Source: Octopus vulgaris
Taxonomy: Eukaryota
NCBI GenBank assembly: GCA_951406725.2
Contig: OX597821.1
Coordinates: 68,758,001-68,822,000, forward strand
Direction of reading: 5' to 3'
Length of the DNA: 64,000 bases
In this document: positions 35,282 to 35,620 of the stretch, piece after piece
Layout: the number at the start of each line of letters is the position of its first letter
Numbering within the stretch: position 1 is the first letter of the stretch
Translations under genes and position numbers: made by a program
Notes under the pieces: generated by a model
The model's database searches: none
What the model was told of the DNA's origin: nothing
Seen by the model: the letters and a program-made list of their open reading frames with translations, nothing else

Positions 35282-35620
35282 TTTATAAATAGATGTGAGT
35301 GTATTTTTACCTTGTTAACAATTAACACGGAAAAAATAAATAAATAGTTACCAGGGCAGCAAAAATCTCACAAGTAAAGGTGTTGTAACTCCTTGTTTAT
35401 AAAGGTAGAAACTTCGTGTTTACGTTGAATATTTTGAATAATATGAATTAAAAAAATGGAGTTAACGCAGGTGTAATCAAATATTTTTACTTTCGACACA
35501 TGTTTCGAAAATTCCACTGATACTATTCAAAAGAATAAATGGTATAAACAATGCAATCTTCTCCTCAGGAAAGTGAAAAAAACGAAACTCGTCAATAAGA
35601 CATTTTAGCAAAAAAAAAAA
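35282..35620 (-). mobile_element. Penelope-like / retrozyme-like insert flanked by (TA)n
   Basis: About 340-bp insert between two (TA)n tracts, carrying a hammerhead fold. Confidence 0.6.
35489..35574 (-). ncRNA. Type I hammerhead ribozyme
   Basis: Minus strand: ACUUUC-CUGAGGA-GAAGAUU...AAUUUUC-GAAA-CAUGU-GUC-GAAAGU. Stem I is 6 bp, stem II at least 7 bp, stem III short with palindromic ACAUGU, and the cleavage triplet is GUC. Confidence 0.85.

Follow-up and report, generated by a model that had tools for sequence, protein, structure and literature searches.

How should a hammerhead ribozyme just upstream of a gene be read: as a regulatory device of that gene, or as a remnant of a mobile element? 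The question is raised by the nudE locus of Octopus vulgaris. A reading made from the DNA letters only (the sequence-only reading below) described an intact hammerhead on the strand of the gene, and proposed that it could cut transcripts from upstream and so insulate or regulate nudE, or could equally be a recent, neutral insertion. We followed up this locus in a window of 64 kb, which is the whole stretch of DNA analysed; its features are collected in Table 1. The hammerhead is real, and the locus itself is an ordinary transposon relic. We are highly confident that the motif is the pLTR ribozyme of a young, multi-copy Penelope-like element (PLE), present here as a solo, 5'-truncated fragment between (TA)n runs and likely inert at the locus.

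Table 1. Features at the nudE-proximal insertion, in window coordinates
Feature	Position	Strand	Basis
nudE exon 1 (neighbour gene, not part of the element)	34235..35001	-	~680-nt 5' UTR; ATG at 34323
(TA)n run, 3' junction	35190..35291		repeat scan; junction statistics
Solo pLTR of a Penelope-like retroelement, 5'-truncated to a 3' end fragment of 325 bp	35290..35615	-	97-100% identity to 39 dispersed copies; longer copies
Optional 'tail' separating two discrete 3' ends of the family, ~+52 and ~+199 nt when counted from the cut site	35290..35441	-	30 sampled copies
Type I hammerhead ribozyme motif	35489..35574	-	sequence, descriptor, shuffles, covariation across subfamilies
Predicted cleavage site, 3' of GUC	35494..35495	-	hammerhead geometry; no excess of copies starting there
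Self-complementary stem III ACAUGUGU, predicted two-molecule pairing (double hammerhead)	35496..35503	-	centre bases; dimer energy
Extended stem II region, 55 nt	35507..35561	-	7/12 scored pairs change both sides; 89.7% of cells paired; found independently by RNAalifold
Catalytic core CUGAGGA	35562..35568	-	sequence; CUGA-N-GA in all rows of alignment A2 (fixed by the search pattern)
Stem I 5' strand	35569..35574	-	ACUUUC pairs with GAAAGU 35494-35489, 6 bp; 82.2% of cells paired in alignment A2
Upstream strand, a predicted mask of the ribozyme through pairing to its GAAAC/stem III strand	35583..35598	-	fall in P(stem I); shuffle p ~0.01
(TA)36 run at the 5' junction, which likely belongs to the target microsatellite	35620..35691		repeat scan; junction statistics

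The hammerhead motif

The minus strand carries at 35574-35489 a motif that reads directly as a type I hammerhead, with the core CUGAnGA, GAAA and NUH and stems I-III in type I order. Stem II is formed by GAAGAUU and AAUUUUC (7 bp), followed by a G-G mismatch and then by CAUUG/CAGUG, the extension that had been proposed earlier. In this register GAA occupies 35506-35504, ACAUGUGU 35503-35496 and C17 position 35495. Hammerhead geometry places the cut 3' of GUC, and the register is thus in agreement with the earlier prediction of a cut between 35495 and 35494.

When both strands of the window were considered, this motif was the single match of our hammerhead descriptor. Dinucleotide shuffles of the window (n = 200) gave no match at the motif's stem lengths and 12 at a loose setting. 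The earlier claim of an intact hammerhead with a complete core and a 6-bp stem I is thus upheld. A plus-strand hammerhead, prompted by a half-motif GAAAC-UC-GUC at ~35583-35595, was rejected as the descriptor found none. The fold z-score of the 86-nt motif was only -1.48, which is weak by itself. A search with hammerhead models, suggested as a check by the sequence-only reading, gave no match: Rfam reported no hammerhead in the window at the gathering threshold and none locally at E<=10, likely because a 55-nt stem II falls outside its hammerhead models.

The host element and its age

A search of the octopus's own genome with 35300-35612 returned 3,427 candidates, and the full-length places that were scored, 40 with that of the window, were 97-100% identical and lay on many contigs. 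Element copies elsewhere reach further 5' than the window copy, into an ORF for a reverse transcriptase (RT) and an endonuclease. In the locus L031, a pLTR is joined to this RT and GIY-YIG-type endonuclease ORF, and a second pLTR follows in tandem 2.8 kb later; the same ORF, with various breaks, occurs in L032, L034 and L035. The hammerhead sits in the pLTR on the sense strand, as expected of endonuclease-containing PLEs. Partial tandem pLTRs, 5' truncation, an adjacent inverted copy and an optional tail were all found in this family, and such anatomy is that described for PLEs (PMC8557442). The dispersed pLTR copies and the longer ones with the RT-endonuclease ORF thus bear out the link to PLEs that had been suggested from the sequence. 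Just upstream of the tandem element, L031:1096-2112 holds a Tc1/mariner-like transposase reading frame, recognised by eye.

Hammerheads of this kind are abundant. Our core pattern matched 7,065 places genome-wide and none in a reversed control, and 684 places carry the exact cut-site 26-mer of the subfamily. The first 30 loci contained 42 complete hammerhead regions, of which 22 were identical to that of the window (the window counted). Related hammerheads occur at a density of one per ~400 kb, giving a chance of ~15% of meeting one in a 64-kb window.

For the age of the insertion, we used 30 copies taken in genome order and picked by the exact 26-mer, a sample that is biased young. Compared to the window copy, they showed 133 substitutions over an aligned total of 6,286 bases (2.1%). 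The window copy had no substitution against the sampled majority over 317 bp; it had two homopolymer-length differences and, in addition, a 2-nt insertion near its 3' end. The copy is therefore young. At a substitution rate of 0.0036 per million years, as quoted in PMC13282606, zero substitutions would correspond to an age of roughly <3 million years. In the same paper, 31 recently active PLE families were counted in an Octopus genome, and its main text contains neither the word 'ribozyme' nor the word 'Hydra'.

Insertion site and reverse transcription

The 3' ends of the sampled copies fell into two groups, 19 of 30 near +52 and 11 of 30 near +199 from the cut site. The 5' ends were variable, and 18 of the 30 copies had an adjacent inverted copy. 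A (TA)4 followed 28 of the 30 3' ends and preceded 6 of the 10 non-inverted 5' ends, compared to a background of 1.6%. Because the 3' end of L031 enters the ORF leader without a TA run, the TA is likely the target and not the template. No 5' junction hotspot occurred at the cut site, where the number of matches (5) equalled that at a control position (5); each of the 10 was an inversion junction. Since the copies do not start at the cut site, reverse transcription appears to read through the hammerhead; and the location of both 3' ends downstream of the cut suggests that the RNA template was either uncut or re-ligated.

The history of the window copy may then have been as follows. The element endonuclease would have nicked a tract of (TA)n located ~300 bp upstream of the start region of nudE, and reverse transcription would have started at the distal (+199) internal site, passed an uncut or re-ligated hammerhead and halted at 35615. 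In the life cycle of the element, we suggest that cleavage would occur only as a two-molecule double hammerhead through an 8-bp ACA-YR-UGU helix, for which tandem pLTRs in one transcript could supply the second hammerhead. The solo copy in the window would have no partner in cis, and its core is predicted to be masked by its own upstream strand.

A comparable system is the PAc Poseidon element of the green anole (Frangieh et al. 2024, PMC11167929), which likewise has two internal reverse-transcription starts leading to an optional tail. The main template there is uncut RNA and no RNA ends are reported at the cut site, in agreement with the read-through in the octopus; hammerhead cleavage was dispensable for insertion of the anole element in vitro (PMC11167929). 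However, the two 3' ends in the octopus are ~147 nt apart and not 30-40, its hammerhead does not overlap the ORF start, and the element belongs to a different clade.

Two other abundant interspersed repeats flank the pLTR insertion, ending at 35622-35922 (right) and 35142-35244 (left). The right flank repeat was present in 51 and the left in 42 of 180 fetched loci, suggesting that those families cluster in shared (TA)n tracts.

Conservation of the fold and the role of stem III

Whether the fold has been maintained was assessed in an alignment (A2) of 30 related variants, hand-chosen from the core-pattern matches. The proportion of paired cells was 89.5%, compared to 82.0% in shuffled alignments and 37.6-51.3% for slid structures. 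Double changes occurred at 10 of the 22 pairs, including 7 of the 12 in stem II, a count of double-change pairs no better than that of shuffles (74 of 500 reached it). RNAalifold, unprompted, recovered stem II but neither stem I nor stem III. By helix, compensatory change was strong in stem II, partial in stem I (82.2%) and located at the centre in stem III. Sister families with intact ORFs of 899-908 aa share the hammerhead architecture. Taken across subfamilies, the compensatory changes show that the fold has been under selection in the lineage of the element.

Stem III deserves separate consideration. The self-pairing of ACAUGUGU comprises 8 bp, including two G-U pairs, and sets C17 in the correct register. 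The palindromic ACAUGU that had been pointed out earlier is indeed present, but it lies 2 nt out of the catalytic register, and the dimer helix is the 8-bp ACA-YR-UGU. The search pattern fixed the core, ACA and UGU, which are therefore not evidence, and left the two central bases free. These were UA, UG or CG in all 30 rows of A2 and, as judged by eye, in 98 among the 100 matches listed. A non-pairing CA centre was found in 43 of 7,065 copies, spread over subfamilies. Because neighbouring bases are unable to pair within one strand, the stem III centre points to an intermolecular helix. A DNA E-box, with the consensus CANNTG, was considered as the cause of the palindrome; it is disfavoured because CA and TG centres are equal in double-stranded DNA, yet CA is rare.

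Energy calculations pointed in the same direction. The modelled active dimer of the window copy lay 8.2 kcal/mol below two monomer MFEs, and the active dimer was below two monomers in 9 of the 9 sequences computed. Across sequences it lay 0-12 kcal/mol above the unconstrained co-fold; for the window copy, the co-fold MFE was 2.2 kcal/mol lower. The dimer mode of cleavage suggested by the sequence-only reading is thus supported by the stem III centre and by the modelled energies.

Published PLE hammerheads cleave weakly and a schistosome motif was inactive as a single copy (PMC4209133), and their activity is described as low and dimer-dependent (PMC4209133; review PMC6765202). The hammerheads reported by Cervera and de la Pena (2014, PMC4209133) resemble the octopus motif in being type I motifs in pLTRs, mostly scattered single copies of truncated elements; their stem II is enlarged too, and their palindromic stem III is likewise predicted to work in dimers. 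In comparison, the octopus stem III is an 8-nt palindrome with a covarying centre (UA/UG/CG), and its stem II is long, compensated and interrupted.

The ribozyme and nudE

The neighbouring gene was defined with RNA-like contigs; these were assembled from runs that we only guessed to be RNA, none being on record as such. In four such runs, the contigs extend from a splice junction at 34235 to 34981-35001, with no loose ends. The next exon, 44.5 kb away, matches NDEL1 in PDB 2v71 at E=1.3e-4; further downstream, the strand of exon 1 also carries a NUDE_C match. The spliced contigs and these two matches agree with the earlier naming of the gene as nudE. Its exon 2 is absent from the 64-kb window and is located outside it; intron 1 spans ~44.5 kb (window 34234 to G000:C8:68747733), and the 5' UTR (~680 nt, in exon 1) contains a TA microsatellite. 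Because the RNA-like contigs stop at 34981-35001, the ribozyme lies outside the nudE transcript, ~490 bp upstream of their furthest end (35001).

The ribozyme may also be hindered by its own surroundings. Without upstream sequence, the active monomer was just 1.3 kcal/mol above the MFE. Once at least 20 upstream nt were added, P(stem I) fell from 0.84 to <=0.004 and the active fold lay ~6 kcal/mol above the MFE, as computed on monomers only. A transcript arriving from upstream carries 35598-35583 first, and its core is therefore predicted to be masked. This masking is not kept in most subfamilies, since only 6 of 22 representatives reached a shuffle p<=0.05. We rejected a conserved anti-ribozyme switch as a feature of the lineage on this basis; the prediction applies to the subfamily of the window copy only.

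These results bear on the idea of a co-opted insulator, in which the ribozyme would cut minus-strand transcripts from upstream and thereby shield or regulate the nudE promoter. The intact core, the position on the strand of nudE near its RNA-like 5' ends and the small energy gap of the monomer without upstream sequence are all consistent with such a role. However, an incoming transcript would carry the masking strand first, and the window contains no partner in cis. Chance alone would place ~30 sense copies within <=1 kb upstream of genes, if 25,000 genes are assumed. The copy is solitary and has no private substitution, which leaves little time for co-option. In addition, no contig cover extends past 35001 in any of the four RNA-like runs, which is weak evidence that transcripts do not arrive from upstream, and cutting of RNA alone would presumably not halt the polymerase. 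We consider the insulator extremely unlikely, and this part of the sequence-only reading is not sustained.

The pLTR could also act independently of cleavage, as a promoter pointing at nudE that provides an alternative start or causes interference. PLE pLTRs typically contain promoters according to a review (PMC6765202), the fragment is oriented like nudE, and the same tail leads directly into the start of the element ORF in L031. The fragment is, however, 5'-truncated, and the RNA-like contigs end by 35001 in four of four runs. This explanation seems to us very unlikely.

A different origin was suggested by the parallel with non-LTR retrozymes, which are non-autonomous tandem hammerhead repeats yielding circular RNA. 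They have in common with the octopus motif a type I hammerhead in an animal genome, and they are reportedly derived from PLE pLTRs (bioRxiv 10.64898/2026.07.22.740005). The octopus copy differs in being single, with no tandem ORF-free unit at the locus, and in being tied to an autonomous ORF; its relatives have variable 5' ends and run into the RT-endonuclease ORF. A retrozyme origin is unsupported on these grounds, and we give it almost no likelihood.

We therefore return to the recent insertion, which the sequence-only reading had offered as its alternative. The copy shows no substitution against the majority and is one of thousands, and its insertion was, very probably, neutral for nudE. 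For this gene, the ribozyme would have little consequence, and a tempting regulatory story is removed.

The element protein and its lineage

The RT motifs FDI, YRDD and FLD and the endonuclease motif IYQC..YIG were found in L031, L032, L034 and L035 when aligned to full-length homologues. Pfam returned no RT or GIY-YIG domain in the element proteins and was equally blank for the canonical-looking relatives examined, so the assignment of the protein rests on motifs and homologue alignments. A PDB sequence search with the element protein gave nothing meaningful, and its named homologues are from Octopus species. Among the 6 long loci, none had a fully intact ORF of the exact subfamily of the window copy.

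Several traits place the element close to the Hydra clade described by Craig et al. (2021, PMC8557442), which includes Hydra-1_Obim of Octopus bimaculoides. In the alignments, the lineage proteins have the DKT motif and the C-terminal CxxC and CxH and lack CCHH, and a C-terminal endonuclease without CCHH is likewise a feature of that clade. Insertion at (TA)n, as seen in the junctions above, a type I hammerhead in the sense pLTR and a short palindromic stem III are also shared. However, RWK of the Hydra clade is RWL in the octopus lineage, and the CxCx5C linker before the endonuclease, present in 14 of 14 other homologues, occurs in 0 of 9 lineage proteins; an Asn/Ser-rich insert takes its place, and sister ORFs reach 899-908 aa. 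Because this linker is absent, we filed the element as a Hydra-like PLE and not as a canonical Hydra member. The ribozymes differ as well. The stem II region has 53-56 nt in the octopus lineage; for the Hydra rows in supplement S2 of PMC8557442, we read ~12-25 nt by eye, and the Hydra-1_Obim hammerhead has another sequence and a short stem II. In a quick tree with unnamed Hydra-type proteins, rooted at the midpoint only, the lineage formed one long-branch clade among them (SH-aLRT 100).

The sister families in L068-L107 are 65-98% identical to P0003 and have intact ORFs of 899-908 aa, with long Asn/Ser-rich inserts replacing the zinc-finger linker. The public annotation of such fragments as 'myb-like' or 'GATA zinc finger' proteins is likely a misannotation.

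We lean slightly towards a broader interpretation, in which Octopus has a large, recently active Hydra-like Penelope sub-lineage that still inserts at (TA)n after losing the zinc finger of the linker, to which microsatellite targeting is attributed. The hammerhead of this sub-lineage would have an obligate-dimer stem III next to its long, compensated stem II; it would be under selection and would not define the ends of the copied template. If this is true, another part of the endonuclease would direct targeting, and the function of the ribozyme would lie in a different step, for example circularisation or protein recruitment. The zinc-finger linker has been tied to (TA)n targeting (PMC8557442), and the linker-less lineage, which targets TA all the same, is a natural counter-example to this proposed link. 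Moreover, thousands of hammerhead variants with dimer-type covariation in stem III make it easier to test what PLE hammerheads do. Neither this lineage nor its ribozyme was described in the full texts searched; Repbase, Dfam and subscription journals were outside the search, and a consensus of the family may thus already exist in a repeat catalogue.

Other repeats

A second, very young Hydra-type family was observed in L038-L067 (e.g. L039:1453-3633). Of its 63 scored copies, most retain an intact ~727-aa ORF with CxCx5C. Its pLTR holds a short hammerhead, of which 59 copies were found in 30 loci, 44 of them identical over 90 nt. This family is likely still active.

Three head-to-tail units, 485 bp apart, lie in L025:1880-3000 and at the same place in L035. 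Each has a different hammerhead-like motif, with a 7-bp stem I, a long stem II and a 12-nt palindromic stem III, and a related single copy occurs in L053. The units are possibly a retrozyme-like array or another PLE end. In the window itself, a 61-bp unit is repeated 3.9 times at 27850-28088 and a 175-bp unit twice at 49844-50207, both probably duplicated pieces of interspersed repeats. A tandem array of ~116 copies of a 22-23 bp unit, strongly purine-skewed, occupies 54192-56776.
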